This document shows positions 6,593 to 41,479 of a DNA stretch of 64,000 nt, piece after piece. The stretch lies in contig CAKVCX010000001.1 of the NCBI GenBank assembly GCA_934725985.1, forward strand, positions 365,910 to 429,909. The letters run 5' to 3'. The stretch comes from an uncultured Bacilli bacterium (GTDB lineage Bacteria > Bacillota_I > Bacilli_A > RFN20 > CAG-826). The translations under genes were made by a program, and so were the position numbers. Numbering within the stretch: position 1 is the first letter of the stretch; each line of letters opens with the position of its first letter. The notes beneath the pieces are model-generated. The model saw only the letters and a list, made by a program, of their open reading frames with translations, was not told where the DNA came from and searched no databases.

Positions 6593-7457
6593 CTAGATAT
6601 TTCTTTATTTTATTAATATTAGAAACTCCATCTTGAAAGCCTCTATCATATAAACTAAGCAATTCCTGTTTGTCCTTGCACGCTACCCCAACACTCACTT
6701 CTTTATCAGGGCGAATAACGAATACACGCCCTTCTTCTTCTAACCTGTCTAATAGATCCATATCTTTATTATAGCGTTCATGACTTTTCAAAAACGCATC
6801 TAGTAGTAAGGGATAATCCTTATATAAAGATTTAGCTATTACTTTTTGAAGATTCTTAATTTCTTTTTTTCTATACCCTTTATTTCTAGTCGCTATTACA
6901 ACGATTTTTTCTATACCTTCATCAAGCGGTTTTCTAAAAGGAACAGACATCGCTACCCCTCCATCCAAACAAAGACAGCCATCTACGCTAACGGGTTTTG
7001 ATAACAATGGCAAAGAAGAAGAGGCAGTCAAACCTTTATATGGGTCGCTAATTGATTTTTTTTCAAAATAAATGGTTTTTCCTGAATTCATATCCGTAGC
7101 AACCATATAAAAAAGAGAAGGAGAATTGAAAAACTCTTTCTCATTAAAAGGCAAAATCGATTTTGGAACTTCGTGAAATAAAAAGTCAAAATCAAATATA
7201 GTGCCTTTGAAAATTCTATTTCTTACCGAAACAAATTTTGGATCAGACATCAACTCTGTAACAACATATTTGCTTCTTCCAAAATCTTTAGATAGGTAAT
7301 TAGCCCCGCAAAGCGATCCCGCTGATGTGCCAATCACATAAGGAAAACTGATTTTATTAAGCAAAAAAGCATCTAAAACTCCTGCCGCATAGATGCCTCT
7401 AGTACCCCCTCCTTGAATTACTAATGCACTTTTTACCAGATTACCTTGTTCCATCAA
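6576..7457 (-). CDS. patatin-like phospholipase
   Basis: GGGTRG oxyanion motif, GTSAG (GxSxG) nucleophile elbow, DGG catalytic Asp motif. Confidence 0.8.
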   Translation of the reverse strand: MMEQGNLVKSALVIQGGGTRGIYAAGVLDAFLLNKISFPYVIGTSAGSLCGANYLSKDFGRSKYVVTELMSDPKFVSVRNRIFKGTIFDFDFLFHEVPKSILPFNEKEFFNSPSLFYMVATDMNSGKTIYFEKKSISDPYKGLTASSSLPLLSKPVSVDGCLCLDGGVAMSVPFRKPLDEGIEKIVVIATRNKGYRKKEIKNLQKVIAKSLYKDYPLLLDAFLKSHERYNKDMDLLDRLEEEGRVFVIRPDKEVSVGVACKDKQELLSLYDRGFQDGVSNINKIKKYLGDKYE

Positions 7458-19814: not shown

Positions 19815-19841
19815 TTAGCAGTGTCAAGAGTAGAGTGCTAA
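19815..19841. promoter_or_regulatory. CIRCE operator copy 2: TTAGCAgTg-N9-GAGTGCTAA
   Basis: Second near-consensus CIRCE 46 nt upstream of copy 1; overlaps the stop codon of the upstream ybaK-like gene. Confidence 0.55.
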
Positions 19842-20305
19842 TTTTTTTCTAAATCCACATATTTGCCAGAAACAAGATTAATCAAATCATTCGGATCTAG
19901 TCCCACTTGATATCCTCTTTTGCCACCAGAAACATAAATTAAGTCGAAGATTTGGGCTGTTTCGTCTATAAAAACCGGAAATTGTTTTTTTAAGCCAATA
20001 GGAGAACATCCCCCATGGATATAGCCTGTTAAAGGCAGCAATTCCTTTTGCTTTATCATAATGATAGATTTACAGCCGACTGCTTTAGCCGCTTTTTTTA
20101 AATCTAGCTCTTTATTTACTGGCACGCAAAAAACATAATGTTCTCTTTTTTCGTTTTCAGTAATCAATGTTTTAAAAACGCAATCTGGATTCTCGTTTAA
20201 GCAATTTGCAACGCTTTCTCCATCACTAACTTCTTCTGAATAAGTCTTTTCTATATATTTGATATTTTTTGTAGCAAGCAAACGCATCACATTAGTTTTG
20301 TCCAT
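19838..20305 (-). CDS. YbaK/ProX-like aminoacyl-tRNA deacylase
   Basis: 155 aa, YbaK-domain size, with GYIHGGCSPIG and conserved Lys. Confidence 0.55.
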   Translation of the reverse strand: MDKTNVMRLLATKNIKYIEKTYSEEVSDGESVANCLNENPDCVFKTLITENEKREHYVFCVPVNKELDLKKAAKAVGCKSIIMIKQKELLPLTGYIHGGCSPIGLKKQFPVFIDETAQIFDLIYVSGGKRGYQVGLDPNDLINLVSGKYVDLEKN

Positions 20306-20371
20306 GCTTTTATTATATAAAGAAAAAGCCCAGGAGCTAGCCTAGGCATAAATAATAAACGTTATTAGTAC

Positions 20372-20920
20372 TTATTTTACAAGTGCGCCGGCAAAGCCAC
20401 CTAAGCCACCAACAATCCCGAAAATACCGCCTAAGATTGCGCCAACTTCCATCTTTCCTGAAACGGCTTCTTTAGCATATTTGCTGCCGGAAGCTAATAT
20501 TTCATCTAAATTAGAAGAGATAAAATTATTTGGGGTAACAAACATAAATATGCCGGCAACAAGCAAGCATAAACCACCAACTAACGATAATAATTTAGCA
20601 AGCTTACCTTTTTTCAAATAAACAAAGACAGCACCTAAAAGCAAGGAAAGAGAGCCAGCAATCGAAAGAATAAAGCCAATTAAACCCAGGGTAGATCCAA
20701 TTAACAATTGATCGCCGCTATCTGTTTTAGTGCCAAAGAATACGTCAGTCCCTTTATAGGTTGCAATAGTACCTTCTAAAGTTTTTCCTGCGACTGTGTA
20801 AGAAAAGAAAGAAGAAGCAAAATTTGTTACCATTGGCAAAACTATGGTAAGAACTCCAAAGACGAGGGCTGCCATCATTACAAATAATGACAAAGTAGAT
20901 TTTTTAGTTTTTTTAGCCAT
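20372..20920 (-). CDS. Gly-rich small integral membrane protein (hypothetical)
   Basis: 182 aa, 4 predicted TM helices, G/A/L-rich; K-rich N-terminus. Confidence 0.4.
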   Translation of the reverse strand: MAKKTKKSTLSLFVMMAALVFGVLTIVLPMVTNFASSFFSYTVAGKTLEGTIATYKGTDVFFGTKTDSGDQLLIGSTLGLIGFILSIAGSLSLLLGAVFVYLKKGKLAKLLSLVGGLCLLVAGIFMFVTPNNFISSNLDEILASGSKYAKEAVSGKMEVGAILGGIFGIVGGLGGFAGALVK

Positions 20921-21016
20921 AAAGACTTATATACCACCTTTCAAATAATCATTTTACATAAAAATTAGCCAACAAAAAGAGAATAAATAAAATAACTTAC
21001 AAAAACTATAAATTGT

Positions 21017-22753
21017 CTATTTATCGTTTCCTTGTTCTAAAAGGGATAATTCTTTCTTTAGTTTACTTTGGCTTAAAGAAAGCTTTTCCTTCTCTTCACT
21101 AGATAAGCCTTTAATTAAATTCAGTTGGGAATTGATATCGGATATTTTATCTTTTATAGGATAATTGGGGTTAGAAATAAGGGCTCTTAATCTCTTATCG
21201 GAAGCAATAACTTCAGAAATGGGCTTCTTTTCTTTTTTCAAGGAGGAAGCTTTCTTCACTTTGGAGGGTTCTTTTTTCTTATTTATGTTATCCTTTTTTC
21301 CCTTGACCTCGCTCTTTTTTAAAGGAGCTTTTCCTCTTTTTATTTCTTTAGTAGCTAGTGTTTCGTTCCTAGTTTTAGCCTCAATCCTAGATTTTACTTT
21401 TTCTTCTGGAATCGCAACAACCAAAACAGGCGAAGCAATAGCCATTCCTAGTTTATCTTCTTGTTTGCTTGCACTTTCTTCCTTCTTAGGCATTTTGGTT
21501 TCTTTTGAAATAAAAGGAACATCCTTTTTTTTGATTTTCTTAGGCGCTTCTTTTGGCTTTAAGTTATCTCTTTTTGTCTTTTCCTTGTCCTTTATTGCTT
21601 TAGAGAAATCAAAATAAACATGAAAGCCATTATTCGCCTTTTCTGCAATTACTTCGAAAGAAGAATACATGAAAGAAGTTTTATTTTTCTTAGAAAGAAG
21701 GGAATAGATTTTTGAACTAATTTGTTCAAAATCATTTAAGGTAAGATCAACATCGCCATGCACTCCTTTAACGAAAGGAATTGAGGGGTCGCGGAACATC
21801 AAGTTATAGTGGTGTGCTACTTGGTGAAGCGCATCTTCGACTTTCCAACCACTTCCAAAATATAATTTTTCATTCGGCTTGTCGATTAATTCTTTCTTTT
21901 TTAAATCCTTTTTATCCTCTTGCTTAGAAGAATATTCCTTTAACAAGGCGTTCAATTTGGTGCTATCGTAAACCAAAGATATCTCTTTTGCTTCTTCTTT
22001 GCTTAACTTAGCAATATTTTTAAGCTGGTATTTTATATCTTCTATTCTTTTTTCTTTCGAATAAGAAGATGAAAGGAATCTTTCCTTTAATTTAGAATCC
22101 GTTTCGACTGTTTTATTAAAAACATAAGAACGTTTTGGTTCTATTTTCTCTTTTGGAGTATTTCTTTGCTTGCTTTGATTGTTTCTATTTTCGTTATTGT
22201 TTTTAAGTAAGCCACTATTCCTTTGTAAAGTCCCGCCCTTTGTAATTTTATAAACACAAACTCTATACCCTTTTTGACTGCCTAAATTATTAAGCTTAAT
22301 TAGGTCTTCTGCTAAATGATTGTCTTGGGTAATAACAGCAATTTTAGAAGTTATGCGATCATTAGATACACGAACATATATGGCATTATCGGCAAAGTTT
22401 TGATTCTTTTCTTTTTTACTAATCGTCAATAATTTTTTCCATGTAGCATGACGAAGTATTTTTAATGCTCTTTTTGCCGCGATACGTTTCGAATCATTAT
22501 TCTTATCGTGGACATGTTTTTTCAATTCATCTTCACATTTTTGAAAAACTATTATTGGTTGTCCTGCTTTGCGATATTCTTTGGCGTTTTCAATAACGTC
22601 CATCCATTCAGGGAAATTTTCATCCATAAGAGAGCAAGTATCCAATATGATATAGTCGAATGGATTCAATAATTCGGCCATCTCAGAGGATTTTCTCTCA
22701 TCAATAAACATATTTTTATATTTTCTATAAACCTCCTTTTTAGAATTATACAT
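21017..22753 (-). CDS. PIN-like domain protein with long Lys/Glu-rich low-complexity C-terminal tail
   Basis: N-terminal DYIILDTCSLMD…(PIN-type acidic residues) followed by ~350 aa of K/E/S-rich repeats (KKEKK, EKLSLSQSKLKKELSLL). Confidence 0.4.
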   Translation of the reverse strand: MYNSKKEVYRKYKNMFIDERKSSEMAELLNPFDYIILDTCSLMDENFPEWMDVIENAKEYRKAGQPIIVFQKCEDELKKHVHDKNNDSKRIAAKRALKILRHATWKKLLTISKKEKNQNFADNAIYVRVSNDRITSKIAVITQDNHLAEDLIKLNNLGSQKGYRVCVYKITKGGTLQRNSGLLKNNNENRNNQSKQRNTPKEKIEPKRSYVFNKTVETDSKLKERFLSSSYSKEKRIEDIKYQLKNIAKLSKEEAKEISLVYDSTKLNALLKEYSSKQEDKKDLKKKELIDKPNEKLYFGSGWKVEDALHQVAHHYNLMFRDPSIPFVKGVHGDVDLTLNDFEQISSKIYSLLSKKNKTSFMYSSFEVIAEKANNGFHVYFDFSKAIKDKEKTKRDNLKPKEAPKKIKKKDVPFISKETKMPKKEESASKQEDKLGMAIASPVLVVAIPEEKVKSRIEAKTRNETLATKEIKRGKAPLKKSEVKGKKDNINKKKEPSKVKKASSLKKEKKPISEVIASDKRLRALISNPNYPIKDKISDINSQLNLIKGLSSEEKEKLSLSQSKLKKELSLLEQGNDK

Positions 22754-22830
22754 TAATAAAAAGGAAACAATAATCTAAAAAGAAAGCCCTGGAGAAAACC
22801 AAGGCTTAAAGAATTTAATTTAGTCCAAAG

Positions 22831-24294
22831 TTAAATTGTTTTAGTGGTGTCGATTAATTTAGCGTTGCCAATAAAGTTTCTAACAGAAGAGGCGGCGCTG
22901 ATAGCGGATTCTTTTGAAGGATAAGTCTCACCCATGACAAGCACAGCCCCATTTTCACTATAGACACGGAATTGATATCTATTTTGTTTATCTCTAGAAA
23001 TAGACATAGAACCAGCTATAACCTTGTTTTTAATGTTCTCAATAGCTTTAGTTACTGCATTTTTCGAGGAATAGGTAGTAGTAGAAAATAAAAGCACACC
23101 ATTAGAAGCTAATAAACGTCCTTTCCATTTTTTTGTCTCTTCATCTATGTAAAGTTCAATCTTCCCATTATTGGAAGGATTTATAGGAGGAAGATCGACT
23201 TTCCATTCCCTGATTTCGTTTTCAGGAATGCCATCTAAATCTACCTCTTTATGAGCTTTATAGAATTTTGTAACAGAACTTAAAGCATTTTGGGCTGACA
23301 AAAGGGTTGGATAAATTTCTCCAGCTACCACAAGACGAGAATCATTGGATGTATAGATCCTAAATTGGGAAAAGCCATTTTTATCAGTCACTATCTTTTT
23401 AGATCCTTCTTTAACATTTTTCCTTAAGGTTGCGATTCCATTATGCGCGCCTTCTCTAGTTTTATATGAAGAGGAGACCAATAAAATTTCACCATTATTT
23501 GCTTTTAAACGATATTTATAAAAACCGGCTTCAGGGAATACTTCATATTTTCCCACTTGGCGATTGTTCTTTTGTTTAATCTCCAATTCACTAGAAGCTT
23601 CTACATTTTTTTCTTCCTTTGTAGGGGGCATTTCGTTAGCTAAAGGCTCTTTATTTTCCTGCCTTTTTTTAGTTTCAAGAGCAGGCTTAGTCACACTTTT
23701 TTCTTCTACGTTAGGAGCATTATCGGCTTCATTGTTTTCTTTATCAATAGGAGTATCTAGAGCAGACTCAAGTGGTTCTTTTATTTCTTCTACTTTTTCT
23801 TGTTTAATTTCAACCTTATTAGAAGAAGTTTTCTCACTCTTACTAGAGACAGCGAAAGCAAATCTAAACGAGGCAACAGCAAGGCAAAGCAAAACGGCAG
23901 CCAATGTAATATATAAAATAGATGCCTCGGCTAAAGTTAAAGATGCAAGAACGCCAGCGAAAGCAAACAAGGAGGCAATAAGAAATCCTAGTAATCCAAT
24001 TAGTATCTTCGCTCTTTTTCTTGCAAACATCCCAATTAAGCCAACTAAGAAACAAGCAATAAAAAGATAGCCCCAAATGCTATCAACCAAAGCCATAGCC
24101 TTAAAAAGCCCTTCTGAATAGGGAGAGTAATTAAAAGCAACTACGTTCTTAAGATGAGAAAGTAATCCATTATTCTCCGCAAAGAAAGTGTCTTTACTTA
24201 AAATAATGAAAGTCGCTTCAATAGATGATAAGACGATAATCAAGGCAAAAATCACCCATGTAATAATAGAAATTCTTTTTTCTTTTTGTTCCAT
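22831..24294 (-). CDS. membrane protein with tandem YegP/DUF1508 domains
   Basis: N-terminal 4 TM helices, then an acidic linker and two DUF1508-like repeats (YKYRLKANNGEILLVSSSYKTREGAHNGIATL / RYQFRVYSENGAVLVMGETYPSKESAISAASSV). Confidence 0.5.
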   Translation of the reverse strand: MEQKEKRISIITWVIFALIIVLSSIEATFIILSKDTFFAENNGLLSHLKNVVAFNYSPYSEGLFKAMALVDSIWGYLFIACFLVGLIGMFARKRAKILIGLLGFLIASLFAFAGVLASLTLAEASILYITLAAVLLCLAVASFRFAFAVSSKSEKTSSNKVEIKQEKVEEIKEPLESALDTPIDKENNEADNAPNVEEKSVTKPALETKKRQENKEPLANEMPPTKEEKNVEASSELEIKQKNNRQVGKYEVFPEAGFYKYRLKANNGEILLVSSSYKTREGAHNGIATLRKNVKEGSKKIVTDKNGFSQFRIYTSNDSRLVVAGEIYPTLLSAQNALSSVTKFYKAHKEVDLDGIPENEIREWKVDLPPINPSNNGKIELYIDEETKKWKGRLLASNGVLLFSTTTYSSKNAVTKAIENIKNKVIAGSMSISRDKQNRYQFRVYSENGAVLVMGETYPSKESAISAASSVRNFIGNAKLIDTTKTI

Positions 24295-27878: not shown

Positions 27879-29489
27879 ATGTCAAATAAAAAGTTTTATA
27901 TTACTACCCCAATATATTATCCAAGTGCCTCCCCACATTTAGGACACGCTTATTGCACGACTATGTGCGACATCATAGCTAGAGGAAAAAGATTAAGGGG
28001 ATTTGACACTTATTTTTTAACCGGCACTGATGAACATGGCGAAAAAATAGAAAAAAACGCCAAAGCAAAAGGAGTGACCCCTCAACAATTCGTTGATGAA
28101 GTGGCAACTAAGTTTAAAGACCTATGGAAAGCCATGTATATATCTAACGATGACTTTATTAGGACAACCGATAAAAGACACGTCGAAACCGTTACAAAGA
28201 TTTTTTCTCGTTTGTTAGAACAAGACGATATCTATCTTTCATCTTATACCGGCTGGTATTGTGTCCATGAAGAAACCTACTGGACCGAAACCCAAGTCGG
28301 GGAAGAGCATTTATGCCCTGAATGCCATAGACCAGTAGAGAAAAAAGATGAACCGGCTTATTTTTATAGATGCCAAAAATATGTTGATTCTTTGCTAAAG
28401 TATTACGAAGAAAACCCAAAGTTCATAACCCCGGAAAATAGAAAAAACGAAATGATTAATACTTTCATTAAGCCAGGGCTACAGGATTTATGCGTATCTA
28501 GGACTTCCTTTACTTGGGGAATACCAGTTAAAGAAAATCCAAAACATGTCATTTATGTTTGGCTAGACGCCTTAACAAATTACATTACGGCTTTAGGGTA
28601 TCTACAAAAAGACGATTCAAAATTTAAAAAATATTGGCAAGATGAAAATTGCGAAGTAGTTCATGTCATCGGGGCCGATATAACTAGATTCCATACTATT
28701 TATTGGCCGATGTTCCTTGAATCATTGGGATTAAGAAAACCTAATAGGATTTTTGTCCACGGTTTGTTAATGATGAAAGATGGAAAAATGTCTAAATCAA
28801 AAGGCAATACCATTTCAGCTTATCCGTTGATTGAAAGATATGGAGTAGACGCAGTTAGGTATTACATGGCCCTAGAAATTCCTTTTGGCATGGATGGAGT
28901 ATTTACTCCTGAACAATTTGTCATGAGGATTAACCAAGATTTAGCCAACAATTTAGGCAATTTATTAAATAGAACCGTTTCAATGATTAATAAATATTTT
29001 AATGGCATTATTCCTTCCTTTAAATCTAACATAACCCCACTAGATAAAGAGTTAGAAGAAATGTTGAATACTACAATCGCTAAATATGAAACTCTTTCTG
29101 ATGATTTAAAGGTAACCGAAGCCTATACCGAAGTCATGAATCTAGTTAGCAGGGCCAATAAATATATAGAAGAAACAACGCCTTGGTCATTAGCAAAAGA
29201 TGAGAATAAAAAAGAACAACTAGAATCAGTTATGTCCCATCTTTCGTTCGTTTTATTTGTCGCCGGAATGTTACTAAAACCAATTCTAGTTACCAAATCA
29301 GATAAGATTTTCGACCAATTAGGGTTAAAAGAAGAAATGCGTGTATACGAAAACATACATAATCCTTCCTGTTTAAATAATCTAAAAGTTGAAAAAGGAG
29401 AGCAATTATTCCCACGTTTAGACAGCGAAAGCGAAATTCAGGCCATAACATCAATGATGAATGGGCCAAAAGAAAAGGCTGCTGCTTAA
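27879..29489 (+). CDS. metG: methionyl-tRNA synthetase (short form, no C-terminal tRNA-binding domain)
   Basis: HIGH-class motif PHLGHAY, four Cys zinc knuckle, KMSKS. Start at ATG 27879 (GAGG RBS); the ORF-track N-terminal extension crosses the rpmE terminator. Confidence 0.9.
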   Translation: MSNKKFYITTPIYYPSASPHLGHAYCTTMCDIIARGKRLRGFDTYFLTGTDEHGEKIEKNAKAKGVTPQQFVDEVATKFKDLWKAMYISNDDFIRTTDKRHVETVTKIFSRLLEQDDIYLSSYTGWYCVHEETYWTETQVGEEHLCPECHRPVEKKDEPAYFYRCQKYVDSLLKYYEENPKFITPENRKNEMINTFIKPGLQDLCVSRTSFTWGIPVKENPKHVIYVWLDALTNYITALGYLQKDDSKFKKYWQDENCEVVHVIGADITRFHTIYWPMFLESLGLRKPNRIFVHGLLMMKDGKMSKSKGNTISAYPLIERYGVDAVRYYMALEIPFGMDGVFTPEQFVMRINQDLANNLGNLLNRTVSMINKYFNGIIPSFKSNITPLDKELEEMLNTTIAKYETLSDDLKVTEAYTEVMNLVSRANKYIEETTPWSLAKDENKKEQLESVMSHLSFVLFVAGMLLKPILVTKSDKIFDQLGLKEEMRVYENIHNPSCLNNLKVEKGEQLFPRLDSESEIQAITSMMNGPKEKAAA

Positions 29490-30859
29490 TGAAACAAACA
29501 AGCCAAAAACAAATATTGACTGGAAAATGCTTTGATCTTTCCTTTGAGGGAAAGGGAGTATTTAAAGATGGCAATACCATTGTTTTTGTTGATGGTATGT
29601 TTCCTAACGAAGAAGGGGAAATTGAAATACTTTACAAAAGAAACGGAGCTTTATTTGGAAAAGTAAAAAAACTAACAAAAGTGTCACCGAATAGAATTCA
29701 GCCAAAATGTACAGTTTGTTCATCTTGTGGAGGGTGCTGTTTTCAACAATTAGAATATAAAGCCCAGTTAGAATACAAAACTAATAAAGTAAAAGAGCAA
29801 TTTAAAAAGATTGCCAAAATGGATGTTGATGTAAATCCATGTATCGGCATGGATGACCCTTATTTTTATAGAAACAAAATCCAAATGCCTTTTGGCAAAG
29901 ATAATAAAGGCAATCCTTACTGCGGATTCTATAAAGCCTCTACCCATGTAATTGTTCCAATCGATATTTGTTATATTGAAGACAAGAGATCAGAGCACAT
30001 CCTTTCATCTATAAAATCATTATTAAAATCTTTTAAAATAGAGCCATATAACGAAGATGAAAAATGGGGAATATTAAGACACGTCCTCATTAAAACCTCT
30101 TTCTATAAGAAAGAAATCATGGTTGTGTTGGTAACTGCCATTGATTCTTTTCCTAGTAGGAATAATTTTGTTAAAGCCTTAATAAAACTTTGCCCAGAAA
30201 TTACTACCGTGGTGCAAAACATTAATTCTAGATCTACTAATGTAATATTGGGAGAGAAAGAACATATCCTATATGGAAAAGGATATATTGAGGATTCTTT
30301 ATGTGGGGTTACTTTTCAAATCTCCTCCAAATCTTTTTACCAAACTAATCCCATAATGACAGAAAAGCTATATTCTTACGCGATAGAAAAGGCAAATTTA
30401 AGTAAAAATGAAGTGGCTTTCGACGCTTATTCAGGAATTGGTACAATCGGTTTGATAGCATCAAAGAGTGCAAAAGAAATAATTTCGGTTGAATTAGTTC
30501 CTCAAGCAGTTAAAGACGGAATTAAAAATGCGAAAAAAAATAATATAAATAATTTTAAGATGTATTGTGATGACGCTTCTTCTTTTATGGCTAAAATGGC
30601 CACGAATAATCAAGGCGTGGATGTATTATTTATGGATCCGCCAAGAAAAGGTTCAGATGAAAGGTTCCTAAAGGCCTTATTAAAATTAAAGCCCAAAAAA
30701 ATAGTCTATGTTTCTTGCGATCCGACCACTTTAGCAAGAGATATTTCTTATATCAACCAATCTTACAAAATAGAAGACATTCAGCCTTTTGATATGTTTC
30801 CTCAAACTTTTCATGTTGAGACTGTAGTGTTGCTTTGTCGCAAAAATGGCAAAAAATAG
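29489..30859 (+). CDS. rlmD: 23S rRNA (uracil-C5)-methyltransferase RlmD/RumA family
   Basis: TRAM domain, Fe-S Cys cluster (CTVCSSCGGCC), SAM-MTase motifs (FDAYSGIGTIGL, DPPRKG). TAATG overlap with metG. Confidence 0.85.
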   Translation: MKQTSQKQILTGKCFDLSFEGKGVFKDGNTIVFVDGMFPNEEGEIEILYKRNGALFGKVKKLTKVSPNRIQPKCTVCSSCGGCCFQQLEYKAQLEYKTNKVKEQFKKIAKMDVDVNPCIGMDDPYFYRNKIQMPFGKDNKGNPYCGFYKASTHVIVPIDICYIEDKRSEHILSSIKSLLKSFKIEPYNEDEKWGILRHVLIKTSFYKKEIMVVLVTAIDSFPSRNNFVKALIKLCPEITTVVQNINSRSTNVILGEKEHILYGKGYIEDSLCGVTFQISSKSFYQTNPIMTEKLYSYAIEKANLSKNEVAFDAYSGIGTIGLIASKSAKEIISVELVPQAVKDGIKNAKKNNINNFKMYCDDASSFMAKMATNNQGVDVLFMDPPRKGSDERFLKALLKLKPKKIVYVSCDPTTLARDISYINQSYKIEDIQPFDMFPQTFHVETVVLLCRKNGKK

Positions 30860-31230
30860 CCAAAAATCGATAAAATTTGATGGATTTCCTTCTTCCCAAA
30901 ATGAGGGAAATCCATTTTTTTGTCGAGAAAACCGCCCAAAACCCGGTAAAGCGGTAAAAATATGGCCTTTACTCGTATGGGGAAATAGGTCGACGCTAAA
31001 AATGCACGCCCATCCTACCTCATATCGGCACGAGAATAGGCGACTAGTACCTGTACACAATGGAAGGAACAGGTGAAAAAGCCCGTAATCATTGGCTTTT
31101 TCTGGGAATTCGTGATTTCTTCATTTTTTGCATTTTTCGGATACTGTGCAACCATACACCCAACCCGAAAGATCGTTTTTCGGCCTAAAAAGGGGCAAAA
31201 CAGGGGTATAGTTTGATTGGTATGAGAGTA
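30812..31230. repeat. rlmD-3'end repeat copy A (authentic rlmD end + ~370 bp downstream)
   Basis: catgttgagactgtagtgttgctttgtcgcaaaaatggcaaaaaatagccaaaaat… recurs at 32784 and 39812 with ~80-85% identity over ~400 bp. Confidence 0.7.
30882..30921 (+). terminator. rho-independent terminator of rlmD
   Basis: GGATTTCC…GGAAATCC stem followed by T7. Confidence 0.6.
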
Positions 31231-31315: not shown

Positions 31316-32560
31316 ATGATTTTTCAAAGGCATATTTCTTCAGCAGTAAGCAGAAGCATTAGCGAGTACCCAATAACCTTGATTACAGGCGCTCGTCAGG
31401 TTGGGAAAACAACGCTGGTTACCATTATTGAAAGAGAACGCGGTTATAAATATGTATCATTTGATGATACTGAGTTGCTTGCCTCTGCGAAGGCGAATCC
31501 AAAAAAGTTTATTAAGGAACATCCTGCACCAATCATTTTCGATGAAGTTCAAAAGGCGAAAGAACTATTCCCAGAAATTGAAGCGATTGTGAACGAAGTG
31601 AGGAGGGAAAGAGGCTCTCAGTCTGCAAACGGCATGTATATCTTGACGGGCTCGCAAAAATTCAATTTGATGAAAGAAATAAGCGAATCGATGTCGGGAA
31701 GGGTATCCATCATTGAAATGCCTCCCTTAAGCCAAGCTGAAATCAGAAATTGGCCTGAACCCGTTTTTTCAGTTGATAATATTAATATGCTTAGTGATTC
31801 GGAAAAACGTTCTTTGAGCGATGAGGATTTGTATCTATCTATAGTCCGTGGGTTTTATCCTGCTCGATGGGAGATTGAGGGAAAGCCAATTGAAAATTAT
31901 TTTTCAAATTACATGAAAACATATTTGGATCGAGATGTCTCTCAGCTAATCGCTTTGAAAGACAAGGTTAAGTTCGAGAATCTATTACGAGTGCTTGCTT
32001 CTTTAACAGGGCAGGAATTTATTCCGGACAACATTGCAAAAACTATAGGTGTCGATAAAAACACAGTCAACGCTTGGATAAATATTGCTATTGCCGGTGA
32101 TATCGTGACTTTGCTATCACCATATTACGAAACTTCAATTAATAAAAGAATTATAAAGCGACATAAGCTTTACTTTAATGACACCGGATTCGCATGCTAT
32201 CTTTTGGGAATCGACTCGCCAAAGGCTCTTCGCCTCTCTTCTTTTAGGGGCTCTTTAGTTGAAACCTATATTCACAATGAAATTAGAAAATCTTATTTAA
32301 ATAACGGCCTGGAAGATAAAAACATGTTTTTCTACCGAGACAATAATCAAAATGAAATAGATTTGATTTTGCTCAGGGATGGCAAGCTGGATTTCGTAGA
32401 ATGCAAATCCGGAAAAAAATTCACGCGCGAAAACGTCAAGGCGTTTTCACAATTGAAGAACACGTCATTCGAAATAGGTGGGCAGTGTATTGTTTGCACT
32501 GCGGAAGAGGCGTACCGAATTTCCTCAAACGTATATGCTTACCCTGTCCGTTGCATATAA
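31316..32560 (+). CDS. AAA-family ATPase with C-terminal DUF4143 domain
   Basis: Walker A GARQVGKTT, Walker B IIFDEVQ, C-terminal DUF4143-like region; GGAGG RBS; ~40% GC. Confidence 0.7.
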   Translation: MIFQRHISSAVSRSISEYPITLITGARQVGKTTLVTIIERERGYKYVSFDDTELLASAKANPKKFIKEHPAPIIFDEVQKAKELFPEIEAIVNEVRRERGSQSANGMYILTGSQKFNLMKEISESMSGRVSIIEMPPLSQAEIRNWPEPVFSVDNINMLSDSEKRSLSDEDLYLSIVRGFYPARWEIEGKPIENYFSNYMKTYLDRDVSQLIALKDKVKFENLLRVLASLTGQEFIPDNIAKTIGVDKNTVNAWINIAIAGDIVTLLSPYYETSINKRIIKRHKLYFNDTGFACYLLGIDSPKALRLSSFRGSLVETYIHNEIRKSYLNNGLEDKNMFFYRDNNQNEIDLILLRDGKLDFVECKSGKKFTRENVKAFSQLKNTSFEIGGQCIVCTAEEAYRISSNVYAYPVRCI

Positions 32561-32783
32561 TCTTTAGGAAGGTGATCGATAAGCTGAATCCGAATCTAAG
32601 ATCCACCGAAGAAAGCGACGGGAAAACAAGGAAATGCGAATTCTACAACCCATCTTGATCCGATGCTTATACAATCTTTGAAACCATTGCACAAATTAAC
32701 GGATTGAAACTGAATCTAGGCTTGGCCAAGCCTTTCGCACTGTGCCTCGTATTGGTGGATTAGTTCTTCGCGTCAAAACTATG

Positions 32784-33200
32784 CATGTTGAGACTGTGGT
32801 GTTGCTTTGTCGCAAAAATGGCAAAAAATAGCCAAAAATCGTGAAAATTTGATGGATTTCCTTCTTTCGAAAATGAGGGGAATCCTCTTTTTTTTGAGAA
32901 AACCGCCCAAAAACCAGGTAAAGCGGTAAAAATATGGCCTTTACTCGTATGGGGAAATAGGTCGACGCTCAAAATGAGCATCCATCCTATGTCGTATCGA
33001 CACGGGAATGGGTGACCATACCTGTACATAATGGATGGAACAGGTCAAAAAGCCCGTAATCATCCGCCTTTTCGGAAATTCATAGTTTCATCGTTTTTGA
33101 TGTTTTCGGAAAACAATGCAACCACACGCTCAACCCGGAAAGCCGATTTCCTGCCTAAAAAGGGGCAAACACGGAGGTGTAGTTTAACCAGAAGCATAAA
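32784..33200. repeat. rlmD-3'end repeat copy B
   Basis: Carries a copy of the last 16 codons of rlmD plus homologous downstream sequence; preceded by the conserved right-end motif cactgtgcctcgtattgg…ttcttcgcg. Confidence 0.7.
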
Positions 33201-33404
33201 ATATGGAATGACATTGAATACCGTGTGTAAGCAAAATAATCATAATGGCTATGCGGCTTTTTGCTTGTCGAGCCCAGCAAGCAATGGTTATCATGTCGAA
33301 TTACGCGAACTTATTGTCACTCCTATTTCCAGTGCCAATCGGTGCCAAAATAGTGCCATTTATGGCATCGGTGTGTTATATTATTGGCGAAAAGTGAAAT
33401 ATCT

Positions 33405-34796
33405 ATGTTGAAAGAACTGATTGCTGAGTGCACCGATTATGACTATAAAGTGTCTGTTGAAACCAAAAAACCAAGAAGCTGGCTAAAAACCGTGTCCGCT
33501 TTTGCTAACGGAGTGGGAGGCTCATTATTCTTTGGTATAAGCGATGAAGGAAATGTTATAGGGCTCAAAAATATAAAAGAAGATTCTGAAAGAATTTCTG
33601 AATTGATTAAGACGCGAGTTGAACCTAGGCCCATATTTGTTTTGATTCCTCATCAAATCGACTCAACGGCGATTTTAGAAATACAAATTCAACCTGGGAC
33701 ATCTACCCCATATTATTATCATTCTGACGGTGTGACCATTGCTTATATTCGTTCCGGCAATGAATCCATAGAAGCCCCCACATATATACTTAATGAATTG
33801 ATACTGAGAGGAACGGGACAGACTTTTGATGGCGTTCTCACAGGCGATTCTTTTTCGGATTATGCTTTTTCGTTTTTGAAATCCAAGTATCTCAAAAAGA
33901 CTCAAACGAGGCTTAATGACCGCGATTTTGTTTCATTTGGATTGATGAAGAACGACCATTTAACTAGAGCCGGTCTTTTGCTTGCTGACGAAAATGAATT
34001 GTTGCAAAGTAGGCTATTTTGCACTAGATGGAATGGCATTAATAAAGTAAACGAAAAAGTGGTCATAGACGATGATGAGATAAGTGGTTCTATCATAAAA
34101 CAGCTCGATGCGGCCTTCGATTTTTACAAAAGAAACACAAAAAGTGCATGGCATAAAGAAGGAGAGGGTACCGTCAATGAACCAGAGTATGACGATATCG
34201 CCATTACGGAAGCCCTTGTTAATGCGATAATCCATCGTGATTATAATATCGTCGGGGCCGAGACGTGTTTAAATATCTATGACGATCGCATTGAAGTCAC
34301 ATCGCCGGGCATGATGTTTTCCGGCAAAAAAATTCCTGAAGTGATTGATTATCCAATGGAATCCATTAGGCGCAATCCCGTTATTGCTGACGTATTCAAT
34401 AGAATGAATTTGATGAACAGAAGAGGATCTGGTCTGTCTAACATCACAAATAGAACAAACGCCCTATTTAGCGATGGCAGAAATCATGTGACCTTCGCTT
34501 CGGAAGACGGTTTTTTTACTGTAAGAATCGAAAACTCCAAATATAAAGGCAACGCGGCAGCGGCAAGTGATAACGGAGAAGCGGTTGCCGATATGAACCG
34601 ATTATTGACGCTAAACGAATATGCTGTTTATTCGAAGTTGAAAACTAACGCGAAGCTTTCTTATGACGAATTATCTAAAGAAGTGGAAATCTCTAGAAGA
34701 ACTGTAGCAAGAGCCATAGCGGCTTTAGTGGAAAAGGGCTATATCAAAAGAGCTGGTTCCGCTAATAAGGGCGGATATTGGATTATTTTAAAATAG
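33405..34796 (+). CDS. AlbA_2 (divergent AAA/Schlafen-like) + HATPase_c-like + wHTH putative DNA-binding regulator
   Basis: N-terminal AlbA_2-type domain (VSAFANGVGGSLFFGI), central ATP-binding-like region (ITEALVNAIIHRDY), C-terminal winged HTH (LSYDELSKEVEISRRTVARAIAALVEKGYI). Confidence 0.55.
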   Translation: MLKELIAECTDYDYKVSVETKKPRSWLKTVSAFANGVGGSLFFGISDEGNVIGLKNIKEDSERISELIKTRVEPRPIFVLIPHQIDSTAILEIQIQPGTSTPYYYHSDGVTIAYIRSGNESIEAPTYILNELILRGTGQTFDGVLTGDSFSDYAFSFLKSKYLKKTQTRLNDRDFVSFGLMKNDHLTRAGLLLADENELLQSRLFCTRWNGINKVNEKVVIDDDEISGSIIKQLDAAFDFYKRNTKSAWHKEGEGTVNEPEYDDIAITEALVNAIIHRDYNIVGAETCLNIYDDRIEVTSPGMMFSGKKIPEVIDYPMESIRRNPVIADVFNRMNLMNRRGSGLSNITNRTNALFSDGRNHVTFASEDGFFTVRIENSKYKGNAAAASDNGEAVADMNRLLTLNEYAVYSKLKTNAKLSYDELSKEVEISRRTVARAIAALVEKGYIKRAGSANKGGYWIILK

Positions 34797-34845
34797 TTTT
34801 TACGGCATATCGCTTTTCTTATATTGGCTAAGCAATCTGCTTTTG

Positions 34846-35000
34846 GGCGGTTGCACAGTTGTGTTTAGACCGTGGTCGATTTATTCCCTCCACACATTAC
34901 CTCGTATTGGCAGGCCTGTTCTTTGCGCCCAATCTGTTCGTGTTGAGACGGTGGTGCAACTGGTTCGGAAATAATGCAATAAATACGGGGCTTTTGGCAA
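34846..35000. repeat. degenerate partial repeat copy (right-end motif + diverged rlmD 3' fragment)
   Basis: ggttgcacag…cctcgtattggcaggcctgttctttgcgcccaatctgttcgtgttgagacggtggtgcaactggttcg matches the motif preceding copies B and C and the first ~30 nt of the repeat. Confidence 0.5.
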
Positions 35001-35370
35001 ATTTGAGAAGAATAGAAAAATGCTAAAATTGCATAATTCTCTGAAATCTAGAAACTCTAAAAACAGCTACTAGACTCGGGAGACATATCGAATAGTGTCT
35101 GAAATACGGCACTTTTTCAATTTCGACCTAAAAGTACCTAAAAACATCGAAAAATGGCCAAAATTCCTGTAGACATGCTGAAAATTTGAAGTATCAAAGC
35201 CAATTATAAAAATAAGAAAAACGAGGCGAGGTGGCCTTGATACTACTAATGCATACAACATTAATAGGGCTAGAATCGTATCAATATGGCTTACCATCGA
35301 ATGCAATGCACTTGTCATTCCGAATATCACATACGCTGATGAAAAATCATTTGGGTATAACCTTGACGGT

Positions 35371-35781: not shown

Positions 35782-36106
35782 TTGTCAAAATCAAAATTAG
35801 AAAATTATCTTCTTAATATAAATCATTCTGTTGGTGGGTCTAAGGCCAAATTTTTCATAAATGCACTGGCCTATTCGTACGATAAACCAAAACAATTTTT
35901 TGATAATGTTTCGGATGCTATTAATGGGGAAAAAACCAGTCAAAGATACAACAACAAAATATGGTAGAGTTCTCGAATTTCATGAGAGAATAAAAACAAT
36001 GTTTGGAGAATATAAGGAAGTTAATATCATAGTATCAATTCAAAAAGACCATGGAGCAAAAAAATATAGAATAATAACTATTTACCCAGGAAAGAAAGGA
36101 GAGTAA
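35782..36106 (+). pseudogene. DUF6883-like protein, frameshifted at an A-run (~35926-35932)
   Basis: Two overlapping frames together give a DUF6883-like sequence (…HSVGGSKAKFFINALAYS… / …KYGRVLEFHERIKTMFGEYKEVNIIVSIQKDHGAKKYRIITIYP). The frame switch is at gggaaaaaaacc. Confidence 0.4.
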
Positions 36107-36108
36107 TT

Positions 36109-36291
36109 ATGAAATTATATGATATAGTCCAATTAAAAGAACAATTTAATAATTATCCTAAAGGAACGACCGGCGTTATCGTTGAGATTTTCGAAAACGC
36201 CGACGCCTATCTTGAGATTGTAGATGACACCGGAAATGCTATAGATGTCATATACGATGTGCCATTATCAATTTTGGAAAAGAAAAAATAA
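36109..36291 (+). CDS. DUF4926 family small protein (putative partner of DUF6883)
   Basis: 60 aa MKLYDIVQLKEQFNNYPKGTTGVIVEIFENADAYLEIVDDTGNAIDVIYDVPLSIL matches the DUF4926 pattern; GGAG RBS. Confidence 0.55.
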   Translation: MKLYDIVQLKEQFNNYPKGTTGVIVEIFENADAYLEIVDDTGNAIDVIYDVPLSILEKKK

Positions 36292-37183
36292 TAGTAGTAC
36301 TCTAACATAGGATTCGTTGAGAAAATTGGCTCGATGTGTCTTATTATTGTGATTGCAAAGGAAAATAAAAAAGATGACTTTCACATAAATGATGAAGTAA
36401 AATGCCTTTCCATCAGTGATATAGTGTTGATTTTATTGCGATATTGACGACGGAAAGGCGTTTTAGTATGGGTTTTGCTCCGTCAAATGCTATATGATGA
36501 CATTAGAAAACCCTGCCGCAAGACTCTTGTTTCGGGGAGCTGACAGTCCCACAGATTCAAAAAATCGGTGAATAACTGGCGCACAGTTTCGTTTTAGAAT
36601 TTGGAAGAGAGATTGACGTCGTTTACGGCAATCTCACTAATGCCTAGTGCCTTCGCGGCCTCTTTGACTCCCCACAAACTCGGATTCCGCCTTTTTGACA
36701 TCTTCCCAGCTCCCGTAGTACTTTGAAGTGCTATCAATAAATAGACATAGACAGGACGTCCATAGTCACCGTATGGGGGTCAGGTCCGTTCACGTGGACA
36801 TGAGCCTGAACACGGAAGGAGAGCGCATACTTGGTGGAATACAGAACGATTGATCTGTTCCTTTACCCGCTTCCATCCGAGGCGTCCCAGCAAAGGATCA
36901 CGGATGAAATCAACAGGATGAAGGAACGTGGATGGTCTTACGTTGAATCAAAGGTCGTTGATGACTGCAACATCATGCTGATATTCAAAAGATGAATACC
37001 AGCCAAGAAGGATAAGTTCCTCCTTTTTCAATAAACGCTCCACGAAATACAAACAAAACATATTTGCAGGAGCGAACGCCGCAAAATTGATGGCATGGTT
37101 TTCTATTCATCGATTCTTTCTAGAGAATGTGCCTAGAGCATTGATAATTAATGATACATCGGTTACACTAATAAAGGAAATAG

Positions 37184-37801
37184 ATGATACGAATGAATCA
37201 AAATTACAATACGCTGATAAAGATAATTGAGTCTGGGGACGGAAGCATATCCAGGAAAGACGCCATGGCAAATGGTATTCCGCCGGCGACTTTCGCAAGG
37301 TACGTCAGCTCCAATCATCTGGTCAAAATCAGGCGCGGCGTATACGCGAAGGATGGCGCCGTGGACGACCTCTTCCAACTTCAGAGAAGGTATCCGGGGA
37401 TAGTGTATTCTGGTCTGACCGCGCTTTATCTTCTTGGCTTGACCGACAGGATTCCGGATTCGATTGAGTTCACGATCCCGAAAGGATGCCGCGTGAGGAA
37501 GAATAGCATCGGGGTCAACGCCATCTGCCACATCGAGAACAATGCCGAACTCTTTCATTTGGGAAACGTCAACACCCAAACCATGTTCGGAAATGAAGTC
37601 ATTTGTTACTCAAGAGAGAAAATGATAGTTGAGATGATACGGAAGAGGGACGATTACGATTCGGAGCTGTTCCTGAAGGCGGTGAGAACGTTCCTGAAGG
37701 GGAAGGTCAGGGACATGGGTTTCCTCTTCAGATACGCGAGAATGAGGAAAATGGAAGAGAAGGTATATCAAATTCTAGAGGCAATGGATTATGAGGATTA
37801 A
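37184..37801 (+). CDS. AbiEi-family (type IV TA antitoxin-like) DNA-binding protein
   Basis: N-terminal AbiEi_4-type motif (LIKIIESGDGSISRKDAMANGIPPATFARYVSSNHLVKIRRGVYA); ~50% GC. Confidence 0.6.
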   Translation: MIRMNQNYNTLIKIIESGDGSISRKDAMANGIPPATFARYVSSNHLVKIRRGVYAKDGAVDDLFQLQRRYPGIVYSGLTALYLLGLTDRIPDSIEFTIPKGCRVRKNSIGVNAICHIENNAELFHLGNVNTQTMFGNEVICYSREKMIVEMIRKRDDYDSELFLKAVRTFLKGKVRDMGFLFRYARMRKMEEKVYQILEAMDYED

Positions 37802-39294: not shown

Positions 39295-39681
39295 ATGTTC
39301 GCTAAAGATAATGCGGGAAAAATAGAACTAGTTAGTTTGGTAAATACCAGGACATATTTAAAAATCACTCATGCGTATTCTTTGACTTCAACATTCAACT
39401 ATAACGCTGTCGCTAATGGACTGCTTACTTCTCCTCCAGGCGACTTCTATAACTGGATTTCAATGGCTGGAAAGATGCAATACGACGTTGCCAAGTTCAA
39501 CGCTGATGCCGCAAAGTATGGCTTATACGATTATTCTACTTTCGAGCCATATGGAATTTCCTACGAAACGTTCGTGGCTTTCAACGGGCAATATTTGAAG
39601 ATACCTGTGGAAAAAGGAATATTCTCCTTTGAATATATCATCAATCTATTCAACACGTACAAAGGCTGGCTTGAGGGGTAG
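39295..39681 (+). CDS. hypothetical protein (possibly 3' fragment); last ~40 bp duplicated at 41166
   Basis: 128 aa ORF with a non-ATG start in the track; its C-terminal coding sequence and ~80 bp downstream recur at 41166-41290. Confidence 0.3.
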   Translation: MFAKDNAGKIELVSLVNTRTYLKITHAYSLTSTFNYNAVANGLLTSPPGDFYNWISMAGKMQYDVAKFNADAAKYGLYDYSTFEPYGISYETFVAFNGQYLKIPVEKGIFSFEYIINLFNTYKGWLEG

Positions 39682-39811
39682 CATCTATTTCCTGATACTA
39701 CCTTGGTGTACAGTTTTAGCCAGTTGCACAGCCATGTTTTGAATGTGGTAGATATGTTCCTTTCACACTGTGCCTCGTATCGGTAGACCTGTTCTTTGCG
39801 TCCATGTTACG

Positions 39812-40215
39812 CATGTTGAGACTGTAGTGTGCTTAGTCGCAAAAACGGCGAAAAATAGCCAAAAATAGTGAAAATCTGATGGATTTACTTCTCAAAAATG
39901 AGGGAAATCCTCTTTTTTGTTGAGAAAACCGCCCAAAACCTGGTAAAGCGTTAAAAATAGGGCCTTTACTCGTATGGGGAAATAGGTCAACGCTAAAAAT
40001 GAGCACCCAACCTACCTCGTATCGACGTGGGAACGGGTGGTCCATACCTGTACACGTTGGAAGGAACAGGCGAAAAAGCCCGTAATCATCGGTATTTTCA
40101 AAAAATCGCGATTTCTCGTTTTTTTTACATTTTCTGAGCACGTTGCAGTCACACGCCCAACCTGGAAAACTGATTTTAGCCCTAAAAAAAGGGTAAAAGC
40201 GGAGACATAACTTGA
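39812..40215. repeat. rlmD-3'end repeat copy C
   Basis: Same architecture as A and B; preceded by cacactgtgcctcgtatcggtagacctgttctttgcg. Confidence 0.7.
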
Positions 40216-40347
40216 TAGAAAATTAGAAAGAAAGCGGCAAGGTTGGTGATCTTGATGTTTTCAAACATAAATACATATATTGTAATGACACTATATTGAT
40301 ACTATACGAATTTCTATGTATATTTTATTTGGGAGGAGGTGATTTAC

Positions 40348-40620
40348 ATGGCCACAACAAATTTGAATATTCGCACCGATAAAGCAATCAAAGAACAGGC
40401 CGAAGCAATCTTCAACAAACTAGGGTTGAATATGACGACGGCCGTTAATATGTTTCTAAGAACAACCATCCGCGAAAATGGCATCCCTTTCGATTTACGA
40501 TTGGATGTGCCAAACGAAGTAACCGCTTCAGCAATCGAGGAAGGAAGAAGGCTTGTAGCAGATCCTTCTGCCCCGCGCTATTCCAGCATGGATGAATTGA
40601 AGACGGCGCTGAAAGAATGA
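40348..40620 (+). CDS. dinJ: type II antitoxin, RelB/DinJ family
   Basis: MATTNLNIRTDKAIKEQAEAIFNKLGLNMTTAVNMFL ribbon-helix-helix DinJ signature; GGAGGAGG RBS 8 nt upstream of ATG 40348. Confidence 0.8.
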   Translation: MATTNLNIRTDKAIKEQAEAIFNKLGLNMTTAVNMFLRTTIRENGIPFDLRLDVPNEVTASAIEEGRRLVADPSAPRYSSMDELKTALKE

Positions 40621-40892
40621 AGTATGATGTACAGTTTACCAATCAGTTTAAGAAAGATTTGAAGCTTGCGAAAAAACAAAATAAGAATCTGGATAAATTG
40701 TTTGAAGTTATCGATATTCTTGCAAACGGCTGTTTATTGGATGTAAGATACAAAGATCATGGTCTTACAGGCAATTATAAAGGAACGCGTGAGTGTCACA
40801 TTGAACCAGACTGGTTGCTGATTTATGAAATTCGGAATGATGTGTTGGTCTTAATGCTTTATCGACTTGGCACGCACTCCGAGCTGTTTTAA
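40617..40892 (+). CDS. yafQ: type II toxin, YafQ/RelE family mRNA interferase
   Basis: 91 aa; KDLKLAKKQNKNL…HGLTGNYKGTRECHIEPDWLLIYEI YafQ pattern; ATGA start/stop overlap with dinJ. Confidence 0.8.
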   Translation: MKYDVQFTNQFKKDLKLAKKQNKNLDKLFEVIDILANGCLLDVRYKDHGLTGNYKGTRECHIEPDWLLIYEIRNDVLVLMLYRLGTHSELF

Positions 40893-41479
40893 AGATGAAT
40901 CATAAAGCGAAACCATCTGCTAGAAATGAAAGGAACCCTAAATCCTAAGCATTAGGAGAGTGCTTTTTCTATTTCAACCCAAAAGAAGAGTTACAAGGCG
41001 TTTGTGCAATTCACAAGCCGCCACCCCCCTCTCGCGATTACGAATGGCAAATCAAAACACACAAAATATATAGCCACAATTAAGATAGGCTAATGCCTAA
41101 ATGCCTTTGCAAGGAACATGATGGGAACATGAGGAACACGATTAAAAGTGCGGTCTTCGATATATCATCAATCTATTCAACACGTACAAAGGCTGGCTTG
41201 AGGGGTAGCATCTATTCCCTGGTACTACCTTGGTGTACAGTTTTTTCTAATTGCGCAGTCACGTTTTGGATAGATGGATGATTGAATTTTGAATAATGGA
41301 GAATAGCCACGTAAACTATATCCAGTAATTAGAACACGAAAACGGAAAATATATAACGAAAGTTAAGATAGAATGATGTCTAAATGTTTTTATAAAAGAT
41401 ACAACAAGGAAAAAAGATATAAGAAAAGTAGACCATGGATCATTCAACAAGTAACAATGAAAACCTTAGTAATAAACGT

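Follow-up and report, generated by a model that had tools for sequence, protein, structure and literature searches.

The window, as we call the whole 64-kb stretch of DNA analysed here, lies on a 1.05-Mb contig and carries on its forward strand rlmD (29489-30859), a rumA-type 23S rRNA m5U methyltransferase gene that we take as the integration target. The gene was assigned from its open reading frame and from source-named RlmD homologues, and Pfam tRNA_U5-meth_tr matched on the rlmD of L060, which is identical to the window gene. Downstream of rlmD lies a 53-nt core, GGTAAAGCGGTAAAAATATGGCCTTTACTCGTATGGGGAAATAGGTCGACGCT, which is found exactly at 30945-30997 (copy A, no strand assigned) and 32917-32969 (copy B), and with 3 mismatches at 39942-39994 (copy C). 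The 53-mer had 0 matches in 100 shuffles. An earlier note on this DNA had reported the identity of copies A and B and the near-identity of copy C. Both hold, but the positions are corrected by 11 nt for copy B (placed at 32928-32980) and by 7-9 nt for copy C (placed at 39935-39985, with 4 substitutions).

The core sits within a direct repeat of ~410 nt, hereafter the block, present on the forward strand at 30812-31225 (A), 32784-33190 (B) and 39812-40220 (C). BLAST identity was 85% between A and B and 81% between A and C. Among the three copies 121 of 409 columns (30%) are variable, and the 53-column stretch of lowest variability is the core itself, with 3 variable columns, a value reached in 0.06% of column permutations (p = 0.0006). 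The second-least variable stretch is the rlmD tail at 30812-30864, with 5 variable columns.

Block A is made up of an rlmD tail, a terminator, the core region and a distal segment. It starts at CATGTTGAGAC inside rlmD (codons HVETVV, 30812), 133 nt upstream of the core, and brings with it the final 16 codons of the gene (HVETVVLLCRKNGKK), the stop codon and an intrinsic terminator at 30880-30922 (+). The terminator hairpin, ATGGATTTCCTTC / GAGGGAAATCCAT followed by a T-run, was recovered by the terminator scan and as inverted-repeat pair I7, and its stem pairing is maintained across copies by changes on both sides. All junctions examined begin at the same sequence as block A, and in rlmD-type, element-arm-type and recombinase-type junctions alike the shared homology begins in the 30812-30829 region (CATGTTGAGACTGTAGTG, HVETVV; +). 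This homology start, the 5′ edge of all repeat copies, marks the junction or crossover region. The distal block end (AAAAAGGGGCAAAACAGGGGTATAGTTTGATT, window 31180-31222) is found on its own in L006 (6704-6745) too, where a RelB-like cassette follows after ~90 nt; conceivably it is a module in its own right, with a possible role in cargo expression.

Cassettes, cargo and decayed junctions downstream of rlmD

A right arm of ~50-110 nt precedes copies B and C, whereas copy A is preceded instead by genuine rlmD coding sequence. Cassette 1 comprises block A, a gene for an AAA_14/DUF4143 ATPase (31316-32560, +) and a partial right (P) arm at 32731-32783 (+; repeat family D4). The block and the 414-aa ATPase gene recur as one unit in the window, L004 and L009, which indicates that cassettes travel as units. 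Block B is followed by a gene for a Schlafen AlbA_2 / HATPase_c_4 / HTH protein (33384-34796, +) and then by junction D (34841-34956, +; families D4 and D6), where the P arm and CGTGTTGAGACGGTGGTG (RVETVV) lead into a different, unrelated right arm. This right-arm type is also present in L013, and in both places (34841-35060 in the window) the sequence to the right of junction D begins GTGCAACTGGTTCGGAAATAATGC. At least three types of right-hand arm occur: the block, one that diverges after ~59 nt (L050, L010, L058) and the junction-D type.

Further downstream, small neighbouring ORFs at 35782-36291 match DUF6883 and DUF4926, families often described as a toxin-antitoxin pair. A 3′-end relic of a large serine recombinase (LSR) gene at 36770-36991 (+) was detected by tblastn (E = 3e-5 and 7e-7) with C-terminal LSR remnants from L022 and L027 as queries. 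It lies in an ORF-free gap upstream of an AbiEi gene (37184-37801), which has no adjacent AbiEii partner; the same relic-then-AbiEi order is found in L027. A 128-aa ORF (39295-39681) is a C-terminal remainder of a secreted protein of ~1,081 aa that is intact in L058 and has a Big_2 domain and a weak Hint-like region. The P arm preceding block C (39700-39811, +; family D5) has two direct half-site motifs located by position weight matrix (PWM), and block C is followed by a RelB antitoxin and YafQ toxin pair (40339-40892, +). Besides junction D, the right arm is found at one more junction, E (41160-41271, +; family D5), a truncated P-arm remnant 91% identical to 39633-39744 that forms the degraded right edge of the island. 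The 3′ end of the 128-aa ORF and the start of the right arm are duplicated there.

The genes between the junctions are those for two AAA_14/DUF4143 ATPases, the Schlafen AlbA_2 regulator, the DUF6883/DUF4926 pair, AbiEi and RelB/YafQ. No intact recombinase gene was found in the 64-kb window, only the 3′ relic at 36770-36991. We conclude that the window holds at least three tandem recombinase-less cassettes with toxin-antitoxin and defence cargo, together with decayed junctions and an LSR relic. Judged from sequence, the internal junctions are the right arm of one cassette joined to the left arm of the next. The same island is carried by 6 of the 8 contigs that encode an identical RlmD, and the other two, of ~2 kb, end inside block A, so the island is stable in this lineage.

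The surroundings of rlmD differ between the window and relatives without an island. In L066 and L071, rlmD is followed directly, on its own strand, by genes for DUF1508, a 578-648-aa protein, tRNA_edit and HSP20. The window has this same set at 19838-24294, upstream of rlmD and on the opposite strand. This arrangement indicates a probable inversion or rearrangement beside the rlmD hotspot.

An element-borne arm at the rlmD 3′ end

A 23-nt probe from the core matched in 7 species genomes, all of them MAGs of uncultured gut "Bacillales/Bacilli bacterium" or Clostridium sp. CAG:568, and a degenerate 25-mer matched 52 human-gut metagenome loci. The block is thereby placed in ~60 loci of uncultured human-gut Bacilli (7 genome and 52 metagenome loci), and BLAST recovered 67 sufficiently complete copies, 61 of them unique, commonly two or three per locus. 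Its presence at rlmD-island junctions of other genomes, a check suggested in the earlier note, was seen at many of them. The block had no match by blastn in 72,556 plasmids and 50,697 phages, and the core probe had none in viral contigs. Contigs often stop at or just after the rlmD stop codon (L061, L062, L065, L069), and for many RlmD clusters the longest contig is only ~2 kb. Because the block is repeated, short-read assemblies evidently break at the rlmD end, and the islands of these organisms are hence under-assembled and hidden in metagenomes.

Clustering of ORFs from all loci revealed one protein family adjoining blocks in 21 loci. Its full-length members (580 and 592 aa) contain Resolvase, Recombinase and Zn_ribbon_recom domains and are therefore LSRs. 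By domain search, intact LSR genes lie directly upstream of a block in L019 and L052, an adjacency not found in the window; L018 has a frameshifted LSR gene at this position, assigned by sequence similarity only. In L019 the LSR ORF reads through the junction into the block. In L048 an LSR C-terminal ORF, recognised by similarity only, crosses the junction in the rlmD frame and ends with TVETVALLSRKNSEK before its stop codon. In ~14 loci, 216-aa C-terminal LSR remnants follow a truncated block (positions 1-330). Streptococcal rumA elements have a single serine integrase, 2-21-bp direct repeats and an attR inside the integrase gene, and rumA and the integrase exchange 3′ ends (PMC4701971); the junction-crossing ORFs of L019 and L048 match this published arrangement. 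In Erysipelothrix, rlmD is the reported site of a prophage and an island (PMC12785378).

Comparison of loci with related rlmD genes bears on the origin of the block. L014, L017, L024, L050 and L059 share the same rlmD 5′ flank and have different arms and cargo to the right of the junction. L063 and L064 encode an identical RlmD protein but differ in block variant and cargo, one carrying a ThsB-type TIR protein, a caspase-like peptidase and a restriction-modification pair and the other an Eco57I-type enzyme and a ThsA-type protein. In the relatives L066 and L071/L072 (69-73% RlmD identity) rlmD ends with HVETVAALSLR, or similarly, before the stop codon. At the no-island loci L066 and L071 the block is absent, and rlmD is followed by an unrelated spacer and then the core chromosomal gene DUF1508. 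The differing arms and cargo, together with the block-free relatives, identify copy A as an rlmD/left-arm junction and not as the ancestral downstream region. Since LSRs abut the block start, strains with the same rlmD differ and no-island relatives lack the block, we consider the block to be element-borne; by these sequence relationships it is a left (P′) arm, block A being that of cassette 1.

In L070, another recombinase-like gene (5401-6729, -; Recombinase and zinc ribbon, 442 aa) lies 20 nt after rlmD in opposite orientation, and the rlmD tail differs (HVETISVIRLKDEENKKKQ before the stop codon). This suggests that another element family may use the same rlmD site. The right arm may itself be a relic of a recombinase gene 3′ end, although in-frame stops lie just upstream and tblastn matches are weak (E of at least 0.003). 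Read in the HVETVV frame, the right arm gives a recurrent peptide, CSFHTVPRIGRPV..HVETVV, that is loosely like the L048 recombinase tail.

Coding, RNA and half-site readings of the core

Across the 61 unique copies, high conservation extends over ~30812-31080, a zone wider than the core, with dips at 30922-30942 and 31032-31050. As the cross-genome loci were collected with a 23-25-nt probe from the core itself, the invariance of the core across genomes is partly a sampling effect. L064, a less biased locus reached via the RlmD protein, has a core variant, CTTTACTAGTATGGGGAAACAAATCCAC, and the second block copy of L018, which lies outside the probe match, has a similar one. The suggestion that the core is an attachment core stands in so far as it is part of an rlmD-island attachment arm and has a half-site-like motif; it fails for the crossover itself, since homology starts 133 nt upstream. 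Only one copy, the truncated block of L043, is broken directly after the core. There is therefore no sign of recombination at the core, and we rejected it as a truncation or joining site of copies.

The conservation was said to act at nucleotide level without codon structure, and this was borne out: there is no 3-nt periodicity, all six frames are interrupted and variation is not codon-phased, so that a protein-coding core was rejected. A real small protein encoded by the minus-strand ORFs through the core (30731-31060, 32760-33029 and 39833-40141) is extremely improbable. These three ORFs, of 89-109 aa, do have the peptide SVDLFPHTSKG in common. However, they lie antisense across the rlmD tail and terminator, and in most copies of other genomes a TAG within TACTAG breaks the frame. 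Even in the best frame, the interval 30930-31090 is free of stops in only 20 of 54 copies, and the three codon phases vary to the same extent (0.105, 0.101, 0.099). The minus-strand frame around the core stays open for 24-82 aa (median 53). With the frame closed by TAG in many copies, the peptides are indeed alike only through DNA identity, as had been proposed.

We consider a small or cis-regulatory RNA, located between the rlmD terminator and a weak hairpin at 31070-31100, to be very unlikely. Such an RNA would fit a ~150-nt segment between two hairpins with purine-rich GGA-type repeats, one compensatory pair in a hairpin within the core, and a minus strand that folds slightly better than shuffles. 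The single-sequence folding scores (z = -0.97, and -1.95 for the minus strand) are, however, not significant, the lone compensatory change would be just as likely in a palindromic protein site, and helices predicted from the window copy are disrupted in other copies. A search of the whole window against Rfam gave no hits at the gathering threshold and only chance-level hits at a permissive one (E of at least 0.45; eukaryotic and archaeal small RNAs). RNAalifold on 54 sequences returned weak consensus folds, -7.4 kcal/mol on the plus strand and -13.3 kcal/mol on the minus strand, with a covariation term of -0.44 for the former and near zero for the latter. With 11 as with 54 sequences, on both strands, the terminator hairpin alone was supported. 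The promoter/terminator scan found no sigma-70-like promoter inside the block. These results speak against the small RNA that had been put forward as the other reading of the core.

A 14-nt motif, G..GAY.TGTTY, was found at fixed distances from the junctions. In 14 rlmD-type junctions its start lies exactly 24 nt upstream, and in 24 element-type (right-arm) junctions it starts 29 and 64 nt upstream. In the window the left, attB-type half-site is TTTGATATGTTTCC (30788-30801, +; PWM score 14.5), 24 nt before CATG, and the P arm before block C has the motifs GTAGATATGTTCCT (39748-39761, PWM 20.8) and GTAGACCTGTTCTT (39783-39796, PWM 18.5). The direct motif copies of the right arm, GGTAGATATGTTCCTT and GGTAGACCTGTTCTTT (window 39748-39796), are 35 nt apart and both resemble the rlmD codons VDMFP. 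In LSR structures, attP half-sites differ from attB half-sites in that one binding motif is shifted outward by 5 bp. The spacing of 24 versus 29 nt thus supports a crossover region at HVETVV, with the proximal right arm serving as element-side half-site.

The left-side half-site motifs were compiled into a weight matrix, which was scanned over the blocks. It gave no forward-strand matches within them; on the reverse strand, matches recurred at two set positions, in the core 3′ half and at a site 84 nt downstream. The core 3′ half, GGAAATAGGTCGAC, is an inverted copy of the 14-nt motif. In block A the inverted half-site-like motifs are m1 (GTCGACCTATTTCC, 30981-30994, -; PWM 12.3) and, 84 nt from it, m4 (TTTCACCTGTTCCT, 31065-31078, -; PWM 12.5). 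They lie at 32953-32966 and 33036-33049 in block B, and at 39978-39991 and 40062-40075 in block C. Across the three window copies m1 scores 12.3-12.7, and m4 scores 12.5 (A), 13.2 (B) and 8.4 (C). Scores of at least 12 have a background of 0.054 per kb per strand, and two such hits on one strand within 400 nt an approximate chance of 2e-4. Any single hit is only suggestive, because random 530-nt windows reach similar scores (95th percentile 10.1, 99th percentile 14.8).

Scores are modest in many copies of other genomes: of 54 copies, 21 score 5-9.6 at the core site, and most score 3.7-7.2 at the second. The variant cores, with four or five bases changed, are shifted towards the motif consensus: on the minus strand that of L064 reads GTGGATTTGTTTCC and scores 13.9, and that of the second L018 copy reads GTCGATTTGTTTCC and scores 12.7. 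Since variants with changed bases fit the motif as well or better, selection appears to act on the motif and not on the exact sequence. In its left half, the core matches a forward-oriented partner half-site at 6 of 14 positions as judged by eye, which is not significant. It counts against an accessory site that the motif explains the 3′ half of the core only, the 5′ half being GGTAAAGCGGTAAAAATATGGCC.

The conservation might also reflect no dedicated function, arising from recent spread of cassettes and from homologous recombination or gene conversion between copies; the 53-nt identity of A and B would then be a conversion tract, or be kept because long identical runs favour RecA-mediated exchange. 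The blocks are indeed strongly mosaic, with seven diagnostic segments giving 18 group-1/group-2 patterns and many breakpoints in 54 copies. Homologous exchange between copies must thus be frequent and could alone yield identical tracts such as the A-B run. Between species the block is 75-88% identical to copy A, as against 67-78% identity of the adjacent rlmD coding DNA to the window's rlmD, which is likewise in keeping with recent spread. Conservation is nevertheless uneven in a reproducible way: the linker at 30922-30942 varies, the distal third is poorly conserved and the core is kept across species. The variant cores have moved towards a defined motif. Moreover, copy A is closer to the L004 copy (88.5%) than to copy B (85%), which argues against simple within-genome homogenisation. 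We regard an origin of the conservation without function as possible but doubtful.

Some other function of the DNA in cis is unlikely, whether as an oriT of an oriT-only hitcher, a packaging or replication signal, or a cargo operator. It would explain why non-autonomous derivatives retain ~0.5 kb of conserved non-coding DNA, far above the canonical LSR site. The core has an 8-bp inverted repeat (GGTAAAGC...GCCTTTAC) in which one G-C pair is exchanged for C-G, and degenerate direct repeats, TTACnCGTATGG..GGAAATAGGTs, occur in the region. This three-fold internal direct repeat reaches p = 0.025-0.05 in some copies but is not significant in those of the window. In favour of an oriT we also counted that oriT-only islands without relaxase, with defence genes nearby, have been described as common (bioRxiv 10.64898/2026.01.13.699239). 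On the other hand, relaxase, type IV secretion, replication and phage packaging genes are absent from all fetched loci, a sample that does not include helper elements of these uncultured hosts. The lack of matches in plasmids, phages and viral contigs, and of a promoter in the block, counts against these functions as well. Among further candidates, an integron attC site was rejected, no locus having a tyrosine recombinase and the ~0.5-kb module having no overall dyad symmetry. In a by-eye comparison, none of cre, parS, DnaA-box, Spo0A-box, dif and rolling-circle nick sites fitted the core.

Taken together, these results identify the core as the best-conserved part of a ~410-nt non-coding left arm, and not as a crossover or gene, nor, most probably, as a small RNA. 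The explanation that we favour starts from integrative elements whose LSR would target the 3′ end of rlmD (rumA), with the recombinase-less cassettes derived from them. Recombination would join rlmD to the arm at the HVETVV codons (30812), and the arm provides a replacement rlmD tail and terminator. By repeating this, a serine recombinase could stack small defence-gene cassettes successively at the rlmD end. The core, through its 3′ half, and the second motif site, 84 nt further on, would then be candidate accessory recombinase-binding sites of an unusually long attachment module. Recombinase-less cassettes would keep the core because it is needed in cis: such derivatives usually keep cis-needed DNA only, yet all of them keep ~0.5 kb, from which we infer an accessory recombinase-binding site. 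Counting against this, the window encodes no recombinase beyond the 3′ relic, and canonical LSRs need only ~50-bp sites, no accessory sites being known for these enzymes. For the combined reading, with the block as left arm and the core as an accessory recombinase-binding site acting as DNA, we estimate a probability of roughly 0.55, its functional part being predicted from sequence.

Comparison with known systems

Serine-recombinase integration into rumA/rlmD and tandem accretion of elements are already known. What is less usual is the wide spread, in uncultured gut Bacilli, of tiny recombinase-less cassettes with defence or toxin-antitoxin genes, each keeping ~0.5 kb of non-coding end. Should the additional half-site motifs, the core among them, prove to be genuine accessory sites, LSRs would use multi-subsite attachment sites, which would bear on defence-gene shuffling in gut Bacilli and on the design of recombinase landing pads.

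The closest relatives are the ICEs, IMEs and prophages with serine integrases at rumA/rlmD (Streptococcus ICE_*_rumA, C. difficile CTn5, Erysipelothrix phiEr670), which have the same 3′ target. They likewise have a single LSR at the element end beside the junction, and integrase and RumA swap C-termini (PMC4701971; PMC12785378). In contrast, most units described here are cassettes of 2-7 kb without recombinase, conjugation or phage genes, and their hosts, uncultured gut Bacilli, differ from those of rumA elements. Whereas rumA elements have 2-21-bp repeats, the cassettes have a ~410-nt non-coding left arm and a ~110-nt right arm, and an RlmD-like tail is restored in frame.

CIME/ICE composites of the ICESt1 type and the staphylococcal SCC islands at rlmH (orfX) are also tandem stacks at the 3′ end of a housekeeping gene. 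Their elements are separated by repeated att sites, and many have no recombinase of their own, this being presumably supplied in trans. The SCC target is also an rRNA methyltransferase gene, and the SCC recombinases are also of the large serine type. Mobilisation in trans may be presumed for the rlmD cassettes by analogy. The repeats of these composites measure tens of bases, compared with a ~0.5-kb module with internal half-site-like motifs here.

Small serine recombinases of the Tn3/gamma-delta, Sin and beta types act at res sites that have extra recombinase-binding motifs within 100-250 bp of the crossover. The rlmD cassettes would resemble them in having further motif copies near the crossover and sites in direct repeat, so that recombination would delete the intervening DNA. 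The res enzymes differ from the LSRs of the rlmD cassettes in being small resolvases with a defined subsite geometry.

Finally, the arrays resemble those of integrons. They are ordered, promoter-poor series of mostly same-strand cassettes of one or a few genes, rich in toxin-antitoxin and defence functions, each with a conserved recombination module. They differ in having no tyrosine integron integrase, attI or attC-type single-stranded palindrome, and in having a serine enzyme as the associated recombinase and a gene 3′ end as platform. We put forward, as a tentative proposal to which we give little weight, that the rlmD 3′ end is an integron-like serine-recombinase platform, with the ~50-bp core as a true accessory site or as a regenerated landing site. 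Its composite ~0.5-kb module would consist of two right-arm half-site motifs, the crossover and two or three inverted left-arm motifs. On such a platform cassettes could be added one after another, excised and reshuffled, a way of working that has not been described for LSRs.
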